Shown: one piece after another, positions 4,756 through 48,755 of the stretch
Layout: the number at the start of each line of letters is the position of its first letter
How positions within the stretch are numbered: the stretch's first letter is position 1
Source: Minisyncoccota bacterium
Lineage (GTDB): Bacteria; Patescibacteriota; Patescibacteriia; Patescibacteriales; UBA12465
DNA length: 64,000 nt
Assembly: GCA_021734405.1 (NCBI GenBank)
Contig: JAIPJA010000001.1
Coordinates: 1,586 to 65,585 of the forward strand
Reading direction: 5' to 3'
Program-made: the position numbers and the translations under genes
The notes under the pieces: generated by a model
Database searches by the model: none
Seen by the model: the letters and a program-made list of their open reading frames with translations, nothing else
What the model was told of the DNA's origin: nothing

Positions 4756-5862
4756 TTAAAGACTCTTTTTCTCTCTTTGCAAGCGTAAATAAGCTTCAAT
4801 AAATGGCTCGATTTCTCCATCTAGAACTTTATCCACTTGATCCGTACTAAAATTAGTGCGATGATCCTTTACCATTTTATAAGGTTGCATAACATACGAA
4901 CGAATTTGTTTGCCCCAAACAGCTACTTTAGCCTCTCCCTTCAATTTATTTTCTTTTTCACTTTGTTTATCTTCTTCTAGCTGATAAAGCTTGGCTTTTA
5001 AAATTTGTAAGGCAGTTTCTTTATTTTGGTGTTGTGATCTCTCTGACTGAGAAGTAGCTGACAGACCAGTAGACACATGAACAATTCTCACCGCTGAATC
5101 AGTCGTGTTAACACTTTGTCCTCCCTGACCAGAAGATCTAAAAACATCAATGCGTAAGTCCTTATCTTGCAACTCTACTTCTTTGGCCTCAGGTAAATCA
5201 GGCAAAACCTCTACCTTAGCAAAGGAAGTATGGCGCATACTCTCAGCGTCAAAAGGGGAAATTCTAACTAAGCGATGAACTCCATTTTCACTTTTTAAAT
5301 AACCATAAGAAAAAGAGCCTGAAATTTGAAAAGTCTGACTTTTAATACCAGCTTCCTGCCCAGGGCTACTATCCACTAATCTAATCTGCCAGCCTTTCTT
5401 TTCACAAAATCTCATAAGCATACGTGAAAGCATCTGAGCAAAATCTTGAGCATCAACCCCGCCTGTGCCTGCGTGTATGGACAAAATAGCATTAAAGCGA
5501 TCATATTTTTCTGAAAATAAAAGTAAAAACTCTAATTTAGAAAACTTATTCTCTAATATTTCCAGCTGAGCTTGAGCTTCCTGATACATAGAGGCGTCCC
5601 CCTCTTTTTGTCCTAAAGCTACTAATTTTTCTAATTCTAAAACTTCTTCTTCTAAATTTAACCATTTAGATATTTCTGCATCTAAATTTTCTGCTCTAGT
5701 GCTTATCTCCACAGCTTGTCTCTGATTCTGCCAAAAACCACTAGCTGTCATTTGTCTCTCCAGCTCTCTTTTTTCTGATTCTAAGCTAGCTATATCTAAA
5801 ATTTTTTTAGCAGAAATAATTTTCTCTCTAAGCTCCTCTAATTGTTTTAATAAATTTTCCAT
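4756..5862 (-). CDS. prfB: Peptide chain release factor 2 (continuous ORF, no programmed +1 frameshift)
   Basis: It has the SPF tripeptide-anticodon motif and the GGQ motif (SGQGGQSVNTTDSAVRIVH). Confidence 0.9.
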   Translation of the reverse strand: MENLLKQLEELREKIISAKKILDIASLESEKRELERQMTASGFWQNQRQAVEISTRAENLDAEISKWLNLEEEVLELEKLVALGQKEGDASMYQEAQAQLEILENKFSKLEFLLLFSEKYDRFNAILSIHAGTGGVDAQDFAQMLSRMLMRFCEKKGWQIRLVDSSPGQEAGIKSQTFQISGSFSYGYLKSENGVHRLVRISPFDAESMRHTSFAKVEVLPDLPEAKEVELQDKDLRIDVFRSSGQGGQSVNTTDSAVRIVHVSTGLSATSQSERSQHQNKETALQILKAKLYQLEEDKQSEKENKLKGEAKVAVWGKQIRSYVMQPYKMVKDHRTNFSTDQVDKVLDGEIEPFIEAYLRLQREKKSL

Positions 5863-5942
5863 AATACTCTGCTTATCACCTCTAATTATTTATTTTTAAC
5901 ATGTTTTTTTTGGGGGGGGTGATGGCATTAAAAATCCTTTAT

Positions 5943-6314
5943 CTAGGTTTCATTTATAAACTCAACTATTCTTTCTCTTTTTTCATTTGCCTGATCCGCT
6001 TTAAAATAAATTTCTAAAAATACAATCCTTTGATCACTGCCTAGATAAGCATATATAACACGAATACCGCTTTTTGCTCCACGCCCTTTTAGACTTTTAC
6101 ATTGAAATTTTTTTACTTTATAAAACTTTAAATTATCAGCATTACTCGCGCCCTCAATTTCAAAAATACTATTACTATCAACCTCCTGACAATGAAATAA
6201 CTCAATACGATATTGTTTGTTTGTTGCAAAATCATCTTTTAAAGTTGGAAATTTCTTCAAAAGCTTTTTGAAATCCCGTTTAAATTGAGCTGTTTCATCA
6301 TAATTAATTTTCAT
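5943..6314 (-). CDS. RelE/ParE-superfamily toxin (HigB/Gp49-like); the real start is probably the internal Met (MKINYDE)
   Basis: The C-terminal KSLKGRGAKSGIRVIYAYLGSDQRIVFLEIYFKADQANEKRE matches the Gp49/HigB fold pattern. Using the internal start gives an 11-nt overlap with the upstream antitoxin stop. Confidence 0.6.
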   Translation of the reverse strand: MKINYDETAQFKRDFKKLLKKFPTLKDDFATNKQYRIELFHCQEVDSNSIFEIEGASNADNLKFYKVKKFQCKSLKGRGAKSGIRVIYAYLGSDQRIVFLEIYFKADQANEKRERIVEFINET

Positions 6315-7086
6315 CGTATTTTCGAACGGAAAATTCATCGACACGAGAAAAAACCGCTTCATAATTAATAGGTTGCAAATCTTCAGTGCCGATCCATGGT
6401 ACGTCCTTATGGGAATAATCTCGCATTTTTGTTGCGTTAAAATCTTTAAATCTTTCAATTTCCCAATCAATCAGTTCTTTTTCTTGGGCAGAAAATTTCG
6501 ACAATTCAGCGGACCTCAGAGGTAAATATTTTTTTTGATCGTGCTGAAAATATTTCTTAGTTACTCTAACTAATTCTCCGTCTTGTTCCATCTGTGCAAC
6601 AATTTCCGGAAAAGCTACTGGTGTTGGTCCAAAATGATTCTTGATATACTTCGCTCCAATCAGCTGTTCTTCAAATTTTTCATAATAATCAAAGTCAATA
6701 AAGTACATAAGCTTGCACACTACGGCCTCTCCGATATTGGGGCGAGCGCCGATTCTTTCTAGAATATACAAGAGCGTTTCTTTAAATTTTTCAACTTTTT
6801 CCTGTGGCACAGAAATACGTACTTCTGGTTTTTGTGCTTTTGTTTTTTTAGCTTTTTTTAATTCAACTCTTGAAGAAGCTGGGTCTTGCCCGCTAATAAG
6901 CTCTTCAAAAGATAGTTTAAACAAATCACCAATTTTCTGAACTTCAGACAAATTAATCTCCCGCTCGCCTTTTTCTATTTGTATATAGGTCGGGCGCGAC
7001 AAACCAAGCTTACCTGCCATAAATTCCTGTGACAAACCTTTTTGTTCTCTTAGGCTTTTTATTCTTTTATATAAATTTTTAATCAT
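6304..7086 (-). CDS. Antitoxin: XRE-family HTH fused to a DUF4065/Panacea (SocA/GepA-like) domain
   Basis: The N-terminus is an HTH_XRE (LREQKGLSQEFMAGKLGLSRPTYIQIEKGEREI). The C-terminal KLMYFIDFDYYEKFEEQLIGAKYIKNHFGPTPVAFPEIV fits the DUF4065 core pattern (K-L-x-Y-F ... GP-x-P). Confidence 0.6.
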   Translation of the reverse strand: MIKNLYKRIKSLREQKGLSQEFMAGKLGLSRPTYIQIEKGEREINLSEVQKIGDLFKLSFEELISGQDPASSRVELKKAKKTKAQKPEVRISVPQEKVEKFKETLLYILERIGARPNIGEAVVCKLMYFIDFDYYEKFEEQLIGAKYIKNHFGPTPVAFPEIVAQMEQDGELVRVTKKYFQHDQKKYLPLRSAELSKFSAQEKELIDWEIERFKDFNATKMRDYSHKDVPWIGTEDLQPINYEAVFSRVDEFSVRKYDEN

Positions 7087-7099
7087 ATATTTAAAATTT

Positions 7100-7152
7100 T
7101 ACACATACTGAGTGTATATTTTTATTATACCTATGTAAAATATTTTTGTCAA
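7100..7152 (-). promoter_or_regulatory. Sigma70-like promoter (TTGACA-N17-TATAAT) plus operator palindrome for the toxin-antitoxin operon
   Basis: The minus-strand -35 is at 7147-7152 and the -10 at 7124-7129. The inverted repeat TACAC-N7-GTGTA (7100-7116) sits between the -10 and the antitoxin start. Confidence 0.5.
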
Positions 7153-7600
7153 ATAAAATGATAATTATTATTGACATTAATATAATAGTCTAACTTCTCA
7201 AGCAAACTTTTTAAAAGCTCTTCGTCATTAACAAGCGCCAATTCTTGTGTCTTATTTTTAGTAACTCGCCATCAACAAACAGCCTTTTATCTTTTTTAAG
7301 AATGTTTATAGGATCGTTTAATAAATTTTGCCTATTATAATATACTAAAAGTAAAATAATCATATTTTTACCTTATAATAGCCATTTTTTATCAGATTTT
7401 CTTGATTTAAAATTTTATAACTCCAAAAACACCCAATTTCGGAGTTATAAAAATTCATAACTCCATTTTCTGTCGTTTTTGGACATTATGACTATATCCA
7501 ATTACATCCAAAAGTATGCCATTGTGGAGCCAGCCAATCACCACTTTTCACTTATATCACTATAAGCGATTATGTGGGATTATTAGGTAAAAACAAAAAA

Positions 7601-8287: not shown

Positions 8288-9196
8288 TTAAAACGCCATT
8301 TTTTGGCGATATACTTTCTCTAGCTCCGCATCCGCTACGCCCATATAAAACATAGTTGTGTTAAGTTTGGCGTGGCCAAGCATCTTCTGCAAATATCTTG
8401 GATGAACATCATGCTCCACTGCCCTCTTGCCAAATCCATGCCTAAATGAATGAGCTGTCACCTTTTTCTCAATCCCTGCAATTTTTCTCGCTTTCCTAAA
8501 CATTTTCTGAACTGCATCTTTGCCAATACGAGATCCAAACTTTTGATTTGATAAATTAATAAATAATGCACTACTCTTATACAATGCTTTCTTTTCTAGT
8601 TTATTTCTTACTTCGAGCCACTTTTGAAGCAACTCATTGGTTTTCTCATCCCAATATATTTCCCTTTTATGATTTGATCTTTTAAACGTTTTGCATACCG
8701 CTTTCATCTCTTCAAAGTTTAAATCAGCGTAATCTATGCTGATCATCTCACTTAACCTGACACCTGTCGCATATAAAAATGTTAATATTGTTTTATCTCT
8801 TAATTGATCGGGATAAAATTCATCAAATACATCCTGCATCCTTTTAACTTCCTCTTTTAACACAAACGGATAATGCTCTTTATCATCCTGCTTTGGCATA
8901 GGAATAACATCATCGCCAAATTCAACCAATTTCTGCCTATGTAACCACCTCCAGAATGTTCGCAAGCTACAAAAATAACTTGCCTGCGTACTCTTTTTAA
9001 CTTTCCTCATCTCTGTTAAATACAAACCGTATTCAACAAAGTCATGCTCTTTGATGTCTACAACATCCTTCTCGGTGCCATCGCACCAATCAATAAAGAT
9101 TTTAAGCCCCCAACGATAAGATTGTACGGTCTCCGGGGAGTGACCGATTGCCAGCCAATCCAAAAATTGGCCGTACAGTTGTTCATTTTGATTCAT
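8288..9196 (-). CDS. int: Phage tyrosine integrase (XerC/D family)
   Basis: The C-terminal catalytic signature is HSFRHGFGKRAVEHDVHPRYLQKMLGHAKLNTTMFY (R..H-R-H..Y). Confidence 0.85.
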   Translation of the reverse strand: MNQNEQLYGQFLDWLAIGHSPETVQSYRWGLKIFIDWCDGTEKDVVDIKEHDFVEYGLYLTEMRKVKKSTQASYFCSLRTFWRWLHRQKLVEFGDDVIPMPKQDDKEHYPFVLKEEVKRMQDVFDEFYPDQLRDKTILTFLYATGVRLSEMISIDYADLNFEEMKAVCKTFKRSNHKREIYWDEKTNELLQKWLEVRNKLEKKALYKSSALFINLSNQKFGSRIGKDAVQKMFRKARKIAGIEKKVTAHSFRHGFGKRAVEHDVHPRYLQKMLGHAKLNTTMFYMGVADAELEKVYRQKMAF

Positions 9197-14056: not shown

Positions 14057-15358
14057 TTAGCTAACAGTTATTTGTCCATTCATAAGCATCGGCAAAAGCC
14101 AGTCGCGCAAAGAAGATAATCTTTGATTTTCCTCCAAATTTTTCTGTTTCTTCTCTTCTATTTTTTCCATAAATTCGAAAAAAACATCTAATATTTGATT
14201 ATCAGGAACTACAATATAATTTTTATCTACAAAATTATCAAATAAAAAGTTTTTTATTCCTGAAGTTTTACCTTCGTAGCCAAAAAAAACTTTGCCATCA
14301 TACATCCTGTTCCAAAAATAATAAAAACTATAAATTAACTTACTATTTTTAAGTGTTATTGCTTTACAAAAATTTGAACAAATTAATGGTTTTGAGAATC
14401 TGCCCATTTTCGAATTTGAGATATAAGCAATACGCCCTGTAGATTGAGTTGGACTCCCACCAGATATTTCAATAATCAAATCATAAGGATTTAATATTTT
14501 ATGCGAATTTTTTTCAAGTATAAATCGCCTAGGAGGGTCGCATTGTTCTTTACCATTCAAGCCATTTATATCTGTTCCACGGATGCAAAATACATCTTGA
14601 GTATAATTTCCGGTCTTTTGATCTTTCCCCCAATCACCACTCTTGTCAGCCGATATTAAATCTTTAACCTTCTCAACACTCCATCCTTTGGGAACTTCGG
14701 CAACAAGCTTATTATTCCTATACATTTTACCTCCACTACTTTTATACGGCTTTCCTTGCTTGTTAGGAAACTCGAATTGCACAAACCAGTATTCATAAAA
14801 TGTTTTTGCTATACTATCTAACTTGTCATTTATTTCGTTATTAAGTTTAATTTTGGAATCAATAAACGATAAAATTTCAGCAATTTTTTTTTGATCTTCC
14901 GCTCTTTCAGGCACTTCAAATTTTAAATTACCAATATCTTCTGGCTTAATCGACGGATAAGAAGATGTAGCGTTCATGCCTAGATTATGGAGATATTCAG
15001 TAATTTGCTTTTGTGTTAAAAGGTAATAAATAAATTTGGGATCGATATTTTCATCTACTATATCTATAGTCGTAAATCCAGTTGATACAATTAAATTTTC
15101 ATCTGGATTTTCTAAGTAACCATAATGTTCTTGATTTGGTCTAACTGTCGAATAGATGATTGAGTTATTTTTAACTCGCCTCTTTGCTCTACTAGGTATT
15201 TTATCTTCCTTTGTATCAAGTATTTTCAAATTAACAATACTATTCTTTGTAATATTTCCAGTATCTAGATATTTAATAACATTAAAATTATCATCCTTCC
15301 CTAATGATTTTAAATTAAGATTTGATATTTTACTGATTTGTATAATTCTTCTATTCAT
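14057..15358 (-). CDS. hsdS: Type I restriction-modification specificity subunit
   Basis: It has two target-recognition halves with conserved spacer/C-terminal HsdS blocks (FEVPERAEDQKKIAEIL, RDWLLPMLMNGQITV). It overlaps hsdM by 8 nt. Confidence 0.8.
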   Translation of the reverse strand: MNRRIIQISKISNLNLKSLGKDDNFNVIKYLDTGNITKNSIVNLKILDTKEDKIPSRAKRRVKNNSIIYSTVRPNQEHYGYLENPDENLIVSTGFTTIDIVDENIDPKFIYYLLTQKQITEYLHNLGMNATSSYPSIKPEDIGNLKFEVPERAEDQKKIAEILSFIDSKIKLNNEINDKLDSIAKTFYEYWFVQFEFPNKQGKPYKSSGGKMYRNNKLVAEVPKGWSVEKVKDLISADKSGDWGKDQKTGNYTQDVFCIRGTDINGLNGKEQCDPPRRFILEKNSHKILNPYDLIIEISGGSPTQSTGRIAYISNSKMGRFSKPLICSNFCKAITLKNSKLIYSFYYFWNRMYDGKVFFGYEGKTSGIKNFLFDNFVDKNYIVVPDNQILDVFFEFMEKIEEKKQKNLEENQRLSSLRDWLLPMLMNGQITVS

Positions 15359-16985
15359 ACTTCAAATTATTCAATTTATGCTCAATTTGATCTTCCAATT
15401 GTTTAGATTTATGAAAACATTCTGATAATTCTTTTTTAAAATTATTAATTTTTTCTTCAAATTCTTTTATCGAAATATCAATATGCTCAATATTTATATT
15501 GAAATATTGACCAGTGCTAAAACTATAATTTTTCTCTTTCACCTCATCGAAGCCAACTACGACTGAAAAATTATCGACTTTTTCCTTATTAGTAAAGACT
15601 CTTACAATCTCTTGCTCTTCCTCTAAACTTAATACGGTTTTTTCATTTTTTCCATCAACTTTAATTTTTTCTCCCATTTTAGAAGCATCCATGAATACAA
15701 CTTTTTCATCTATATTTTCCTTATCAATAAATATTACTGAAACATTTGTTCCAGTGGTGGCAAAAATATTACTGGGCATGCTTATCACACCTTTTAGCAT
15801 TTTTCGATCAATTAATTCTTCCCTGATTTTCTTTTCAATTCCGTTTTGTGCTGTTATAAATCCCGTTGGAACAACAACAGCTGATTTACCTTTCTGTGAT
15901 AACGAATAAATAATATGTTGAAGAAATAAAAGATATATTGCCATTGATTGTTTTTTCTTTTTAGGTACAGTTGGTATACCAGCAAAAAACCTCTCACCAT
16001 TCTCCTTGGTATCAATATCCTCTCTCCAATTACTAAAATCCAACTTGAAAGGAGGATTTGAAACAATATAATCAAATTTCATCAATTCCTTTCCTTGCCT
16101 ATGGTAGGGATCTTTTATTGTATTACCTTGGATAATGTTATGAATTGAATGAACTAAATTATTTAAAATAAGATTTAATCGCAAAAGATGTGATGATTTA
16201 TCTGACAAATCCTGCGAATAAATAGTACATTTATCTTCACCAATCGCATGAGCGACGTTCATTAATAAGGTTCCCGAACCTGCTGATGGATCGTATACCG
16301 TAACATTACTCACTGGCTTATCAACCAAAATAGATGCCATAATTTTAGCTATGGCATGGGGTGTGTAATATTCAGCATAAACACCTCCCCCATCTTTATT
16401 ATAATCTTTAATCAAATACTCAAATATCGTTGAAAAGAAATCAAACTTTTGTTCAAAAATATCTTCAAAGTTAACATCAACTAGCTGATTAATTATAGCT
16501 TTTGAAAAATTATCTTTTTGTTTTTCAGAAAAGTTTTTTAAATATTCATCGACGCCATAAAACAACTGAATTTTATTCCCCTCTTCAGTTTTAACCGAAA
16601 ACACGTCATTATTGATTTTTGAAATATCTCTCAATGTATCACTGAAAAGCTTAGCAAACTGTTCACTGTTTTGCTGATTCCATAATGTCGAAATAAAATG
16701 ATCAGGATATAATCTCGCACTATCAGGACTCATTTTTTTAAGCAAAAACTCATAATCACTCTTAGAGTATTTTTTTATTACTTCTTCCCAGTTATCCGCT
16801 TTTTTAAGTTTTGAATCAAGCTCTTTTACTTCATATCCAAATTTGTCATTCATGAACTTATACAAAAAAACTTGGGTGATAATTTTAAATTCATCCCCAC
16901 TATTACCTAATCCATAATCACTACAAATTCCTTTCAGATTATCGATTAACTGTTTAGTTTTTTGAGTAAAATTTTGCTCTACCAT
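15351..16985 (-). CDS. hsdM: Type I RM N6-adenine DNA methyltransferase subunit
   Basis: Motif I is DPSAGSGTLLMN and motif IV is NPPF (YIVSNPPFKLDF). Confidence 0.9.
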   Translation of the reverse strand: MVEQNFTQKTKQLIDNLKGICSDYGLGNSGDEFKIITQVFLYKFMNDKFGYEVKELDSKLKKADNWEEVIKKYSKSDYEFLLKKMSPDSARLYPDHFISTLWNQQNSEQFAKLFSDTLRDISKINNDVFSVKTEEGNKIQLFYGVDEYLKNFSEKQKDNFSKAIINQLVDVNFEDIFEQKFDFFSTIFEYLIKDYNKDGGGVYAEYYTPHAIAKIMASILVDKPVSNVTVYDPSAGSGTLLMNVAHAIGEDKCTIYSQDLSDKSSHLLRLNLILNNLVHSIHNIIQGNTIKDPYHRQGKELMKFDYIVSNPPFKLDFSNWREDIDTKENGERFFAGIPTVPKKKKQSMAIYLLFLQHIIYSLSQKGKSAVVVPTGFITAQNGIEKKIREELIDRKMLKGVISMPSNIFATTGTNVSVIFIDKENIDEKVVFMDASKMGEKIKVDGKNEKTVLSLEEEQEIVRVFTNKEKVDNFSVVVGFDEVKEKNYSFSTGQYFNINIEHIDISIKEFEEKINNFKKELSECFHKSKQLEDQIEHKLNNLKYE

Positions 16986-19978
16986 ACTTTTGTGTTATTA
17001 AAATCGTAAAGATATTCTTGAGTTGCACAATTATTAATTAAATCCGCTGACTTGTTGTCCAATTTAATGCCGTGATTTTCAAAGCTTCCAATCACAATAG
17101 GACTCATGAATTTTATAAAATAATCTTCATTTTGAATCATTCTTGCATTATCTAGGACTTTTTGATCAGCTTGTTTTTTGATATCTGTTAAAGTTTCAAA
17201 AATAGTTATTTCTCTAGCATCAACATTCCTCTCTTCTAAAATTCTTTTATGAATTCTTGCGTATTTTTCATCATTCTCATATTTCGCCTTTAGCTGATTA
17301 TTTCTTCTATTTAGATCCGTAATCGCCTCATATATTTTCTCAAGCTCTTTGATATTAGCACTCATTTCTTCTTGGGTAATTTCATCAAGATTTTTCTTAT
17401 CAAATAATCTTCTCAACTCTTCATATAAAGCCACGAATTCTTTGTCATTTTTATCAAAATTTTTACCCATTTCCTCTCTTGTCTTTTTGAGCGTATTCTT
17501 TAGTTTATCAGCTATAACCATTTCTTCCTCTGATACCTTACGGAAAGTAAATATAACGTCTTCTAACGCAACATTCAAGAGGTTGGTTGTTTCTGAATTA
17601 TTCTCCAAAGAATCCTTTAAATTCACCAAGTTTAAATGATTTTCTGCCTCATTATAAAGCATAGCAAGTTTTTTGAAATCTATTTTATCCAAAAGTTCAT
17701 AATGCCCCATCAAACGAATGATATTATAAAGATTTTTTGCACTCATTAAAGCTTTTTTAATCTCTAAAATTTCTTGCTTATCTTGAATGGCAGATATTTG
17801 TTTAGAAAAATTCTCGGCGTTGACTAAATCAAATCTAAAAAGCCTGTCTTTAATAATTTCAATTTCCGATTCTATTTCTTCTTTAGATAAGAAAATATTT
17901 GAATAAGTCTCCATCTCATCACCAAGTTCGTCTTGCAACTCATCAAAATATGCTTTATTTGTGGCATCAAATTCTTTTCGAATATCGGCAAAATCCACTA
18001 CATATCCAAAATGAAAATCTTTATAAGGTCGGTTTACACGAGTTAATGTTTGTAATAAGTTATGTTTTTTTATAACTCTGCCTAGATATAACTTCTTTAA
18101 CCGCTTAGCATCAAAACCTGTTAAAAGCATATTGTACACAAATAGAAAATCAATCTTACCTTCTTTGAATTGGTCAATTTCATCTTTTCTTTCATCTTTT
18201 GTGCCGATATCATGTAAAATCAAACTCGCTGTTAAATTCTCGCTGTGTTTCTTATTAAATACTTCAAACATTTTTTTTGCCTGATCTGAACTATCACAGA
18301 CCACCAACGCACCAATACTATCATCACCGTACATAATTCTACTTTTATCAAAATCTGCAACAATATAGTCTAACATCGGTTCAACAAATTTTGGATGAGA
18401 ATAAACTTTCCTTTTATCAGCATCACCTTTCAATATTTTTATATCTTTTAATGCTTCTTGTAATTTAATCTTGTAACTAGTTTCAATATCCTCTCTTATT
18501 AATTTTAGAGTATATCCATCAGCTATCGATGAATTATAATAATATTTGTGAATATAGTCACCAAAAATAGCTTTTGAGCTTTTATCTTTACCGATGAGCG
18601 GAGTTCCTGTTAGTCCGATAATTATCGCTTCTCTGTCTGAAGTCATTAAATTAGCAAGAAAGCTTCCTTTTGGATCATAACTTCGGTGTACTTCATCTAG
18701 GAAATAAATTCTTTGAATGTTTGTACTATAAAGTCCGCAGTTTAAAACAGCGGTATCTTCTTTGAATTTTTGGATGTTAACTACAGTAATCTCAAGTTGC
18801 CCCTTTAAATTATGTATATTTTTATTACTCTGAAAATCCTTTAATAACTCATCTTTTGAATTTACAGTATGTACTACCAATCCTCGACTTGAAAATTCTT
18901 TTTTAGCTTGAATCAAAAGATCCAAACGATCAACTATAAAATAAAACTTAGGTATGATTTGTTTTTTCTGAAAATAATCAGTTAAATACTTAACATTATA
19001 ATAAGATAATGCAGTTTTTCCGCTTCCTTGGGTATGCCAAATAATCCCCTTTTTAATACCTTTATCAATTGACTGCTCGATTGCTTTGGTAGCAAAAAAT
19101 TGAGGGTATCTCATTACATGCTTTTGAAGTCCATCATGCTCTTTTACGTATGCGATTGCATATCTCAATAACATTGATAATCTATCTCTGCTAAATAATG
19201 AACTTAAGATTCTGTTAGTTGGTGAATCTATATCCTTGTTAGTTATAAACTCTGGGCTATGTTTTATAACATTTAAATTATTATCTTTTAAAACATAATT
19301 CTCTACTTCTTCGTCTTCTGGTTTTATGATCGAATTAACATCGAGCTTCTCCACTGCCACATCCTCTTTAAAAGCGTTAAATATTGCTCTATTATGTGAA
19401 GTGCTTGAATAATAAGCACCCTCAACCTGACCAATTGATTCCGAATCATACTCCATGTTATTTGAGAAAACAAGGAGTTGAGTAATATTAATAAATTTTC
19501 TAAATTTTTTATTTTGAAAACGAGTATTTATTCTATTCCTTTCAGCGATTATCCCCTCTCTATTGTTTGGCTTTTTTACTTCTATAAATGCCAAAGGCAT
19601 ACCGTTTATTAAAAGCGTGATATCTGGTCGAAATTCCTCATCTCCGTTTTTACAAGTAAGTTCTGTAACGACATGGAGTGAATTGTTATCAAAATTATCA
19701 AAATCTATTAATTTTATTTCATTTGATAGCAACATCTCATAAAACTCCTTTCCTAAGTCCTCATTATCCAAAACCAAAGATATCTTTTCGTATAATTTTT
19801 TTATCTCATCATCTTCAACATCTTTATTTATTGCCTTGATGCTATCAAAAAAAATATCTGTAAAAATATTTGTTTCAACATCCCATTTAGATGTTTTTAG
19901 TGATAAGTATTTATACCCCAATCTACAAAGATGTAATATTGCTGGTATTTTTACCCTTGTATCTTCATTGTAAGCCAT
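16979..19978 (-). CDS. hsdR: Type I restriction enzyme R subunit (endonuclease/helicase)
   Basis: The N-terminal nuclease motif is FRPDITLLINGMPLAFIEVKKPN. The helicase Walker A is HTQGSGKTALS and the DEAH-like box is FLDEVHRS. Size is 999 aa. Confidence 0.9.
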   Translation of the reverse strand: MAYNEDTRVKIPAILHLCRLGYKYLSLKTSKWDVETNIFTDIFFDSIKAINKDVEDDEIKKLYEKISLVLDNEDLGKEFYEMLLSNEIKLIDFDNFDNNSLHVVTELTCKNGDEEFRPDITLLINGMPLAFIEVKKPNNREGIIAERNRINTRFQNKKFRKFINITQLLVFSNNMEYDSESIGQVEGAYYSSTSHNRAIFNAFKEDVAVEKLDVNSIIKPEDEEVENYVLKDNNLNVIKHSPEFITNKDIDSPTNRILSSLFSRDRLSMLLRYAIAYVKEHDGLQKHVMRYPQFFATKAIEQSIDKGIKKGIIWHTQGSGKTALSYYNVKYLTDYFQKKQIIPKFYFIVDRLDLLIQAKKEFSSRGLVVHTVNSKDELLKDFQSNKNIHNLKGQLEITVVNIQKFKEDTAVLNCGLYSTNIQRIYFLDEVHRSYDPKGSFLANLMTSDREAIIIGLTGTPLIGKDKSSKAIFGDYIHKYYYNSSIADGYTLKLIREDIETSYKIKLQEALKDIKILKGDADKRKVYSHPKFVEPMLDYIVADFDKSRIMYGDDSIGALVVCDSSDQAKKMFEVFNKKHSENLTASLILHDIGTKDERKDEIDQFKEGKIDFLFVYNMLLTGFDAKRLKKLYLGRVIKKHNLLQTLTRVNRPYKDFHFGYVVDFADIRKEFDATNKAYFDELQDELGDEMETYSNIFLSKEEIESEIEIIKDRLFRFDLVNAENFSKQISAIQDKQEILEIKKALMSAKNLYNIIRLMGHYELLDKIDFKKLAMLYNEAENHLNLVNLKDSLENNSETTNLLNVALEDVIFTFRKVSEEEMVIADKLKNTLKKTREEMGKNFDKNDKEFVALYEELRRLFDKKNLDEITQEEMSANIKELEKIYEAITDLNRRNNQLKAKYENDEKYARIHKRILEERNVDAREITIFETLTDIKKQADQKVLDNARMIQNEDYFIKFMSPIVIGSFENHGIKLDNKSADLINNCATQEYLYDFNNTKVW

Positions 19979-20033: not shown

Positions 20034-20579
20034 TTATATAACTAAGCTTCCGATTCTAATCATCATTGCTTGTTGACTAACATTATATTTTTTAGCCAAT
20101 TCAGCTATTGTTTTTAAATCATCATCATTATTCTTTATCTTATATTTACCTGATAAATCATTAATCATTTCATTTCTTGGCATCAATAATTCAGCTGCAA
20201 ATTGATTTGCCTGAATTTCTTTTATATTATTTGTATTTGATGTTGCGTTTGCATCTCTAAAATAAACATCAGATGAATCTACATGCATACTGCTGATGTT
20301 GTGCAACATAAAATGCCCAATTTCATGGGCGATTGTAAACCTTTGCCTATGTTCACAATGATCTTCATTTACAACAATAACAGGTTGGCCATCTTTACCT
20401 TTCATCTTTATAGCACCAGAAATTTCATCTTTTGAGAACTTCATCTTAGCTACTTTTATTCCAAGTGATTTTGCCACATCTTCAATTTTTACCGGGTAAC
20501 TATCAATCTCAAGCTTATTCGATATTTTTTCAGCTTCCTTGACGGCTAATTTAATTTTTTGATTAATAAAATTAGACAT
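20034..20579 (-). CDS. ImmA/IrrE-family metallopeptidase (anti-repressor protease)
   Basis: The HEXXH motif is TIAHEIGHFMLH. It pairs with the upstream XRE gene. Confidence 0.8.
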   Translation of the reverse strand: MSNFINQKIKLAVKEAEKISNKLEIDSYPVKIEDVAKSLGIKVAKMKFSKDEISGAIKMKGKDGQPVIVVNEDHCEHRQRFTIAHEIGHFMLHNISSMHVDSSDVYFRDANATSNTNNIKEIQANQFAAELLMPRNEMINDLSGKYKIKNNDDDLKTIAELAKKYNVSQQAMMIRIGSLVI

Positions 20580-20583
20580 ATGT

Positions 20584-20871
20584 TTATATATTATCTAAAT
20601 TCTTAGTATCATCTTTATTTAATAATTTAACATTATTACTAGTATCAATTCCTTTCATTACTTCTGTAATTTTCAAATCTAAAGCCTCTGCAACCAAATA
20701 AAGCTGAAAAGCTGAGATTTGTTGTTTTCCATTTTCTATTGCAGACAATGTGCTTTTATTAATATTTAAACCAGATTCTTTGCTAAATTCATCCAAAGAA
20801 TACCCCTTTTTGGTTCTTTCATCTTTGATTTTTTTCCCTAAATTTAAATAAAAACTTGCTTTATCAAGCAT
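20584..20871 (-). CDS. XRE-family HTH transcriptional repressor (phage cI/ImmR-like)
   Basis: The HTH is KGYSLDEFSKESGLNINKSTLSAIENGKQ. It sits directly upstream of ImmA. Confidence 0.8.
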   Translation of the reverse strand: MLDKASFYLNLGKKIKDERTKKGYSLDEFSKESGLNINKSTLSAIENGKQQISAFQLYLVAEALDLKITEVMKGIDTSNNVKLLNKDDTKNLDNI

Positions 20872-41639: not shown

Positions 41640-42343
41640 AGTCGGTCTTTGTTCGGTCTAAAAAATTTTTTATAACCTGCCTTTTTGGCAAGCCCCATTG
41701 CACATGCTCCTTTGTTTTTTGCATCCATGCTTTGTGATACATCTATTAAAATATTTATAACTGTTTGAAATCCGATCTGACCAACAACCTCTAACCAAGC
41801 TTTGACATTTCTTTGATCATTAATTTTTTCCAAATGATATTCCAACTGTCCCCTTTCAGTGTCTGATAAATTTGCCAATTTTTTGACAACGTTAACGTTC
41901 TTTTTAATATAATGATTATTAGTATTATGATTGTGTTCGTTTTGACGAACGCTAGAGGGGGTTGAGCGTTCGTTTTGACGAACGGTTGGGATTGTAAATT
42001 GGGACGGTGGGGATAAGTCGTTCGTTTTGACGAACACTTCGTCTATTTTTTCTGTTAATTCCACATAAAATTTATTGCCGTCCCTCATTGTTCTTAAAAA
42101 CCCCTCCTTTGCTATTTTTCTAATTCTTTCAGAAATCCTGCTTTTTGACTTAATGCCAAGCATCGGCATCTCTTCCATTAAATAATTAAAATTCACCCAG
42201 GTATACCCATTTTTGCGTTTTTCTTCAACCCTTTTATTACGAGATGAGCATAGATAATATAAATAATCCAAAATAGCTCCATCTATGATATCGAGCCTAG
42301 TTTGCGAAAGCACTATTTGATTGATATTTATATTATATTTCAT
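41636..42343 (-). CDS. Replication initiator / replisome organiser (winged-helix N-terminus) with iterons inside the gene
   Basis: The N-terminal wHTH is MLGIKSKSRISERIRKIAKEGFL. The DNA repeats encode the repeated VRQNE peptide. Confidence 0.5.
   Translation of the reverse strand: MKYNININQIVLSQTRLDIIDGAILDYLYYLCSSRNKRVEEKRKNGYTWVNFNYLMEEMPMLGIKSKSRISERIRKIAKEGFLRTMRDGNKFYVELTEKIDEVFVKTNDLSPPSQFTIPTVRQNERSTPSSVRQNEHNHNTNNHYIKKNVNVVKKLANLSDTERGQLEYHLEKINDQRNVKAWLEVVGQIGFQTVINILIDVSQSMDAKNKGACAMGLAKKAGYKKFFRPNKDRL
41935..42035. repeat. Three iterons GTTCGTTTTGACGAAC embedded in the replication gene (candidate phage origin)
   Basis: Exact 16-mer copies lie at 41935-41950, 41968-41983 and 42020-42035. 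Each is internally inverted (CGTTCG/CGAACG). G-rich spacers separate them. Confidence 0.6.
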
Positions 42344-48660: not shown

Positions 48661-48755
48661 AATATATTTAGCAAAATTTTTACCTTGCTTATAAATATAA
48701 GGCTATTATATACACTTAAAGTTTCCTTGTCAAGAGCAAAGAGGATAATAAAAAA

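Follow-up and report, generated by a model that had tools for sequence, protein, structure and literature searches.

The 64,000-nucleotide stretch of DNA analysed here (the window; positions 1,586 to 65,585 of contig JAIPJA010000001.1, assembly GCA_021734405.1, Minisyncoccota bacterium) carries on its minus strand two overlapping genes, one encoding a 260-residue protein with a helix-turn-helix (HTH) and a Panacea domain and the other a protein of 123 residues. We consider it about three-quarters probable that the locus is a type II toxin–antitoxin (TA) cassette of the PanAT kind, with a single promoter and two translationally coupled genes, and that Vibrio cholerae HigB2 is the nearest characterised relative of its toxin. 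Direct support for this assignment comes from the domain identities, the fold, residue conservation, gene pairing, conservation of promoter and operator, purifying selection and co-evolution of the two proteins. A previous sequence-only reading had proposed a TA pair at this place, and its interpretation is supported by the present analysis, with refinements regarding the family of the toxin and the independence of the pair from a neighbouring prophage. The cassette and its genes are as follows:

5948–7193, minus strand: the cassette (~1.25 kb; promoter/operator, panA and toxin gene), delimited by the limits of DNA similarity to related loci.
6304–7086, minus strand: panA, the predicted antitoxin and autorepressor, with HTH, Lys-rich linker and Panacea domain (open reading frame (ORF); Pfam HTH_3 and SocA_Panacea; orthologue in 51 of 53 loci; ratio of non-synonymous to synonymous substitution rates (dN/dS) ~0.11).
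6898–7062, minus strand: XRE-type HTH, PanA residues 9–63 (PF01381, E 3.2e-14; PF12844, E 3.2e-11).
6394–6717, minus strand: Panacea/DUF4065 core, PanA residues 124–231 (PF13274, E 1.2e-16; profile positions 2–112 of 113).
5943–6314, minus strand: panT, the predicted RelE-fold, HigB2-like toxin of 123 residues (translation; AlphaFold2 model; Foldseek; profile comparison with HigB-2; conserved R85/Y103/K105; dN/dS ~0.14).

The antitoxin gene (7086 to 6304) precedes the toxin gene (6314 to 5943). The start codon of the latter, an internal ATG at 6314–6312, is located within the last codons of panA, of which the TAA stop is found at 6306–6304, and the two genes thus overlap by 11 nt. The translation from this ATG (MKINYDET...FINET) comprises 123 residues, exactly as had been proposed for an internal start. 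An alternative ORF of 175 residues, starting with a TTG at 6470, was rejected as a calling artefact, and the shorter reading is preferred because homologues are ~120–137 residues long and those that were aligned start at M(M/I)(M/I)NYDET.

Both domains proposed earlier for the antitoxin, that is, an N-terminal XRE-type HTH and a C-terminal DUF4065/SocA-type Panacea domain expected within residues ~90–250, are recovered by Pfam above its cut-offs, the latter with a score of 62 bits (cut-off 25.7) for SocA_Panacea (PF13274, formerly DUF4065). The accession previously given for DUF4065, PF13443, is that of HTH_26, which matches the N-terminus of PanA weakly. Conservation across 47 orthologues delineates a constrained region of approximately residues 99–260, including a conserved tail (residues 241–257). 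The segment FGPTPV (residues 151–156) is nearly invariant in the family and resembles the GPV signature located in β2 of the Panacea domain, which was shown to matter for neutralisation (PMC8832971); the corresponding residues would be GPT or PV. PanA of the window contains no additional neutralising domain such as a zinc-binding domain, and neutralisation probably falls to the Panacea region, the linker or the C-terminal tail. As a side observation, residues 83–256 weakly match the C-terminal half of the NCBIfam model for DarG (NF048014, E 8.5e-5), which hints that the DarT-binding region of DarG may be related to Panacea.

For the second gene, the sequence-only reading had suggested a RelE-fold toxin of the HigB/Gp49 type; the fold is borne out, while the family has to be revised. 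An AlphaFold model calculated from a shallow alignment (42 sequences, 81% mean identity) had a predicted local distance difference test score (pLDDT) of 50 and was discarded; the AlphaFold2 model based on a diverse alignment has a pLDDT of 96.4 and a predicted template-modelling score of 0.89. Its topology, β1-α1-α2-(β)-β2-β3-β4-α3, with two N-terminal helices packed on an antiparallel sheet and a C-terminal helix, is that of the RelE/ParE (BECR) fold. The top Foldseek match in the PDB is RelE of Pyrococcus horikoshii (1wmi, E 2e-4), and further matches comprise V. cholerae HigB2, Escherichia coli RelE, YafQ, YoeB, HigB, and RelE/HigB1 of Mycobacterium tuberculosis (probabilities 0.9–1.0, and 0.99–1.00 for RelE, HigB2, YafQ and YoeB; target-normalised TM-scores of about 0.5–0.74). 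The best-ranked of these proteins are ribosome-dependent mRNases. A search of the viral fold database BFVD yielded nothing significant.

At the level of sequence, V. cholerae HigB-2 is the only meaningful match among PDB chains, with E-values of 0.007 for the single sequence, 0.001 for a profile of close homologues and 6e-5 for a profile of 67 diverse family representatives. The Pfam family of HigB2, PF06296, is touched by three of the 67 representatives (E ~0.001), and its gathering score is not reached by the toxin of the window. No match to Gp49 (PF05973) or HigB (PF05015) was obtained for the window toxin at E ≤ 1, or for any of the 67 representatives at E ≤ 0.01, and this identity was rejected. 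The only library match of the toxin is PHROG 5869, a family of unknown function.

V. cholerae HigB2 (PF06296; 5ja8, 5mje and 8a0x) and the window toxin share (i) the fold β1-α1-α2-β2-β3-β4-α3, (ii) the motif KG+G..SG.R.IY....(7-8)...IY.K in which candidate equivalents of Arg64, Tyr82 and Lys84 are found, and (iii) a basic β2-β3 loop. They differ in that sequence identity is only 17–20%, Arg51 is replaced by Gln71, and the window toxin has longer N-terminal helices and an extra short strand. In HigB2, Ala substitutions at Arg51, Arg64, Tyr82 and Lys84 reduce the activity 170- to 3000-fold, and the Gly/Lys-rich β2-β3 loop is required for activity (Hadzi et al., PMC5416850). The profile-level alignment of the two sequences places R85, Y103 and K105 of the toxin on R64, Y82 and K84 of HigB2 (GSRIIY with G83-I-R85-V-I-Y88, and TIYGK with E101-I-Y103-F-K105), and the HigB2 loop ASKGKGKRGGS on S74-LKGRGAKSG83. 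Within the family, R85, Y103 and K105 are present in 66, 62 and 66 of the 67 representatives, respectively. K66 (61 of 67), K/R68 and K69 are on the same strand as the equivalent of Arg51.

The assignment as a RelE-fold toxin is thus based on the model with a pLDDT of 96, the Foldseek matches to RelE and HigB2, the HigB2 profile match and the retained candidate catalytic residues; and it is the profile match with E 6e-5, together with the retained Arg, Tyr and Lys, which makes HigB-2/PF06296, rather than Gp49, the closest family. Hence, as judged from sequence and model, the protein is most probably a divergent RelE-type toxin acting as a ribosome-dependent mRNase.

The toxin is a member of a large family. 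The single sequence has 948 matches, there are 582 representative clusters at 50% identity, and a profile search shows that the family comprises 3,331 or more clusters at 90% identity. Precomputed Pfam domains are absent from all members listed by these searches, and some are labelled COG 'RelE' by JGI. The family profile recovered 53 genome loci, and in 51 of these an ORF with HTH and Panacea domain is located immediately upstream of the toxin gene and co-directional with it, the overlap usually being 17 nt; in the remaining two loci, the toxin is truncated in one and the copy is frame-disrupted in the other. Five further members, from WOR-3, Thermodesulfobacteriota, an unclassified 455-kb contig and two close relatives, have PF01381 and PF13274 on the upstream gene in all cases (precomputed annotation), and this panA overlaps the toxin gene in most of them, the two being ~180 nt apart in loci L057 and L058. 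Neither a third conserved gene nor a recurring flanking family was found across the 53 loci, the flanks of which are unrelated to each other. One locus, L008, contains a second, diverged pair 1.8 kb downstream of the first (5846–6935; PanA E 2e-57, toxin E 7e-13).

The median pairwise dN/dS amounts to 0.14 in the toxin and 0.11 in PanA, synonymous sites being close to saturation relative to the window, and the pairwise distances of the two proteins correlate with r = 0.95, a value reached by none of 2000 Mantel permutations. The bicistron is conserved, is subject to purifying selection and encodes two proteins that co-evolve, and the latter two properties support the view that it represents a functional unit.

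The cassette is preceded by a promoter and by inverted repeats which are candidate operators:

7147–7152, minus strand: −35 hexamer TTGACA of a promoter matching the consensus at 12 of 12 positions; TTGACA and an adjoining TTTACA element are kept in ~23 of 28 related loci.
7124–7129, minus strand: −10 hexamer TATAAT of the same promoter, 37 nt upstream of the panA ATG.
7140–7183, no strand assigned: imperfect inverted repeat I1, TGTCAA...TTGACA, overlapping the −35 hexamer, a candidate operator for the HTH (arms 7140–7159 and 7164–7183, 20 nt, 75% complementary).
7093–7144, no strand assigned: inverted repeat I9, TTTTACA/TGTAAAA, bracketing the −10 hexamer, with candidate operator half-sites (arms 7093–7103 and 7134–7144, 11 nt, 91% complementary).

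The consensus promoter TTGACA-N17-TATAAT noted earlier (7152 to 7124, minus strand) is a perfect one, and the palindrome reported with it corresponds to imperfect inverted repeats which overlap the promoter. The 64-kb window contains two perfect sites of this kind, compared with 0.04 expected from shuffled sequences; the second is located at 48705–48733 (minus strand) in the region of host ribosomal-protein genes. No Rfam element was found near the cassette.

Across related loci, the spacer element TTTTACAT is conserved, and ~23 of the 28 loci with sufficient upstream sequence exhibit the arrangement TGTAAAAATAcCTGTCAA-tttaC-TTGACA-GGtATTTTTACA-TTTGm-TAnnAT; the consensus of this upstream region is a long palindrome, the right arm of which holds the −35 hexamer and the spacer. 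The palindrome of the main clade, TGTAAAAATAcCTGTCAA-N-TTGACAGGtATTTTTACA, is tighter than that of the window. Repeat I1 is conserved in L059 and L060, the two loci which form a sub-clade with the window, and in this sub-clade TGTCAA and TTGACA are separated by 18 nt, as against 6 nt in the loci of the main clade, with the element ATATTTTACAT kept in the spacer; the window has a TGTAAAA element after the −10 hexamer. The HTH of the sub-clade is only ~42% identical to that of the main clade, and the Panacea part is ~83% identical. That HTH and operator differ together suggests a modular co-replacement of the DNA-binding domain and its operator. Such a joint change is what one expects for an autoregulated type II operon, in which PanA would bind to the repeats.

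From these results we infer toxicity and its dependence on the ribosome, neutralisation, DNA binding and the biological role of the cassette along the following lines. PanA would bind directly to the toxin through its Panacea region (residues ~99–260) and thereby keep the toxin off the ribosome, while a PanA dimer would bind through its HTH to the inverted repeats over the −35 and −10 hexamers and repress the operon. Toxin set free by loss or inactivation of PanA would enter the ribosomal A site and cleave the mRNA located there, using Arg85, Tyr103 and Lys105 along with a basic β2 strand and β2-β3 loop (K66, K68, K69 and KGRGAKSG), so that translation would stop.

Several points weigh against this picture. 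The toxin has no match in Pfam, even at E ≤ 1, nor in NCBIfam or PADLOC at permissive E-values; the sequence match with HigB2 is confined to the ~47 C-terminal residues; and the Foldseek E-values are modest, being 2e-4 and weaker. The position of the functionally important Arg51 of HigB2 is occupied by Gln71 in the clade of the window, and by A, R or S in other family members. For every member of the toxin family the activity is a prediction, and among PanAs with several domains there are some in which neutralisation is not due to the Panacea domain (PMC10440598).

Comparison with known systems allows one to place the pair. Panacea antitoxins were defined by Kurata et al. in 2022, who showed for nine pairs that neutralisation is direct and does not depend on proteases; the toxins validated in this way comprise MazF-like RNases, toxSAS, Fic/Doc, membrane toxins and a cyclase, and the PanT groups with RelE/ParE fold in Dataset S1 (T14, T28, T58, T59 and T60) are predicted only (PMC8832971). 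The best HHpred match of group T14 (pT15; members are, e.g., WP_015641600.1, WP_129619247.1 and WP_067091868.1) is HigB-2 (99.7%), and the group is listed as 'notest' (PMC8832971). Like the window pair, T14 combines (i) an antitoxin with HTH and Panacea domain, (ii) an antitoxin-first order with a short overlap, (iii) a toxin devoid of a CDD or Pfam match, and (iv) HigB-2 as the best remote match. Among its HTH-PanA pairs are those of Candidatus Saccharimonas aalborgensis and of a further TM7 genome, in which the overlap is exactly −11 nt; both the phylum-level group and the layout are thus those of the window. The clade of the window comes from Paceibacteria-type metagenome-assembled genomes and was probably not sampled by the RefSeq-based survey from which T14 was derived. 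Look-ups of the clusters containing toxin family members returned no WP_ accessions and so provided no tie to T14, and no named RefSeq organisms are among the profile matches listed. As judged by layout, taxon and the HigB-2 match rather than by sequence clustering, the window pair very likely belongs to T14.

Other RelE-superfamily systems resemble the pair in part. The higBA operon of V. cholerae is toxin-first and encodes the antitoxin HigA2, in which a disordered N-terminal neutralising segment is followed by a C-terminal HTH, whereas the window has an antitoxin-first operon with an HTH-Panacea protein; neither the toxin-first order nor the HigA-type antitoxin that characterise a higBA-type module is thus found. 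RelBE of E. coli and of Archaea shares with the window pair the fold (1wmi being the top Foldseek match), the antitoxin-first order, and an active site (predicted for the window toxin) of the Lys/Arg/Tyr type without a His-Glu pair. However, similarity to PF05016 is not detectable, the Tyr of the window toxin is on β4 as in HigB2 while that of RelE is on α3, and RelB is unrelated to PanA. Finally, the validated MqsR:PanA pair of Burkholderia fungorum likewise combines a RelE-superfamily RNase with an HTH-containing PanA. There, a zinc-binding domain and not Panacea neutralises the toxin, and Panacea was proposed to be a sensor (Ernits et al. 2023, PMC10440598). In contrast to the window pair, this system is toxin-first and relies on a neutralising zinc-binding domain of the MqsA type, which PanA of the window does not possess.

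The genes in the first part of the window are, in order, a histidine kinase, comEC, prfB (4756–5862), the cassette, 1.1 kb with small ORFs, and then a tyrosine integrase (8288–9196), with which a prophage begins:

8288–43825: prophage or island of ~36 kb, located between prfB plus cassette and rpsI/rpoA.
After the integrase, in the prophage: DUF5655 and PD-(D/E)XK genes.
14057–19978, in the prophage: complete type I restriction–modification (R-M) system hsdS/M/R.
20034–20871, in the prophage: pair of genes for an HTH protein and ImmA/IrrE, followed by an amidase gene.
23–41 kb, in the prophage: tail, tape-measure, major-head, portal, large-terminase and ParB-methylase genes.
From 44.4 kb, on the far side of the prophage: host genes rpsI, rpoA, rpsD and rpsK.

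The integrase and the structural genes confirm that a real prophage adjoins the pair, as had been stated. Attachment repeats gave chance-level matches only, the best being a 12-mer at 7247 and 43992 (~0.7 expected), and no tRNA gene is present in the window. Within the prophage, the palindromic 19-mer GTTCGTTTTGACGAACGCT occurs in three copies at 41935–42038, spaced by 33 and 52 nt, which could be an operator or iteron array.

The earlier reading had raised the question of whether the pair moves with the prophage in related genomes, and the related loci do not bear this out: DNA similarity is limited to 5948–7193, and an integrase is located near the cassette in only one of the 53 loci. In blastn comparisons, positions 80–1325 of L059 align with 7193–5948 of the window at 88% identity, and positions 1621–2860 of L060 with 7186–5952 at 79%; the flanks of related cassettes cannot be aligned with those of the window, with the exception of prfB (69%). 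In L059 the same cassette immediately precedes prfB, and past its left edge the sequence is unrelated to that of the window, although the contig ends 186 nt upstream of panA, which leaves room for a prophage beyond that end; this comparison argues that the cassette is on the host side of the prophage boundary. A tblastn search with the toxin found no match in 50,697 phage records or 72,556 plasmids, and a pattern scan of IMG/VR found no relative. The cassette is an independent module which adjoins the prophage without detectable membership in it.

Comparison of the window with L059 also bears on mobility. The synonymous divergence (dS) of the cassette is 0.46–0.62, with proteins 87–91% identical, whereas dS of prfB is saturated (2.6) and its product is 50% identical in amino-acid sequence, which indicates that horizontal transfer of the cassette is more recent than the divergence of the hosts. 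Nonetheless, the cassette occupies the same position in both, upstream of and co-directional with prfB, the gene for release factor RF2 (4756–7193 in the window; 80–2509 in L059). In another locus, L002, prfB is found 2.7 kb downstream of the cassette. The adjacency to prfB could be due to an insertion hot spot, or it could reflect a functional link between an mRNase of the A site and a release factor. The 80-nt gap between the toxin stop codon and the prfB start contains a T8G8 homopolymer tract (5904–5919). No terminator is predicted in this gap, and prfB could hence be transcribed through from the cassette promoter.

It is tempting to ask whether such a neighbourhood discloses the role of the cassette. 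One might envisage anti-phage defence by abortive infection, with the Panacea domain sensing infection and releasing the toxin, in place of a simple addiction or stress module, a view which concerns the role only and is compatible with the mRNase mechanism. Apart from the adjoining prophage with its type I R-M system, it draws on the cassettes of L057 and L058 (3326–6098), which are directly upstream of a Gabija-like pair (AAA_15/AAA_21 plus OLD-TOPRIM, and a UvrD helicase), and on those of L054 and L055 (3486–5786), which are directly upstream of a 766-residue AAA_13 protein. Such neighbourhoods are anecdotal, however, considering that no flanking family recurs across the 53 loci and that the toxin matches no PADLOC model, and we thus regard a role in defence as possible but doubtful. 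An even more far-reaching view, in which the toxin is the main representative of a large HigB2-like family devoid of a Pfam model and tied to HTH-Panacea proteins, the cassette is a mobile, phage-sensing abortive-infection module of Patescibacteria with Panacea as the trigger sensor, and the link to prfB is possibly non-random, appears distinctly unlikely.

Regarding the mode of neutralisation, the alternative to direct binding is that PanA acts indirectly, as a type VI adaptor which hands the toxin over to ClpXP for proteolysis. The precedent is SocAB of Caulobacter crescentus: SocA shares the DUF4065/Panacea domain with PanA of the window and acts in this way (PMC8832971). SocA is a ClpXP adaptor without an HTH, and SocB inhibits replication at the β-clamp and does not have the RelE fold (PMC8832971). 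Against such a mode, every PanA that Kurata et al. tested formed a complex with its toxin and neutralised it without ClpXP or Lon (PMC8832971). The correlation of PanA and toxin distances (r = 0.95) fits sequestration and adaptor modes alike. Taken together, we consider delivery to ClpXP improbable and favour direct binding.

The target of the toxin is a separate matter, since the BECR fold is common to RelE and ParE, which Pfam separates poorly (PMC11980606), ParE-type PanT groups such as T59 exist in the Panacea dataset, and the fold alone cannot settle the target (PMC10440598). The toxin might hence poison DNA gyrase in the manner of ParE instead of cleaving mRNA. Yet the best-ranked Foldseek matches are mRNases (the top 50 also include the PfiAT complex, at ranks 14–24 and unclassified, and Cami1), the only significant sequence match is with the mRNase HigB2, and the Arg, Tyr and Lys of the predicted RelE/HigB2-type catalytic site as well as the HigB2-type basic loop are nearly invariant in the family, so that a gyrase poison would come as a considerable surprise. 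That the 123-residue protein is a degenerate, non-toxic relic of the RelE fold and PanA merely a transcription factor could be argued from the lack of a curated family match and from the eight PanTs that were non-toxic in E. coli (Kurata et al., PMC8832971), but is hardly credible in view of strong purifying selection (dN/dS 0.14 with synonymous sites near saturation), the nearly invariant equivalents of the catalytic site, and the size of the family, which comprises no fewer than 3,331 clusters and in the examined loci of which the genes overlap and are strictly paired.

The pairing of an HTH-containing PanA with a HigB-2-like toxin was predicted already in 2022; the window provides a further member which has good bioinformatic support and is mechanistically unsurprising, and the general understanding of TA biology remains unchanged. 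Leads to be followed are the neighbourhood of defence genes, the recurrence beside prfB, and the way in which HTH and operator vary together. A large family of 'hypothetical' proteins of 123 residues can now be viewed as RelE/HigB2-type toxins missed by Pfam, NCBIfam and PADLOC, and a new hidden Markov model could label thousands of them. The cassette also offers a clean natural test case for neutralisation of a RelE-fold toxin by Panacea without a dedicated neutralisation domain. Finally, a bacterium of the Candidate Phyla Radiation with a reduced genome gains a confidently annotated TA cassette.

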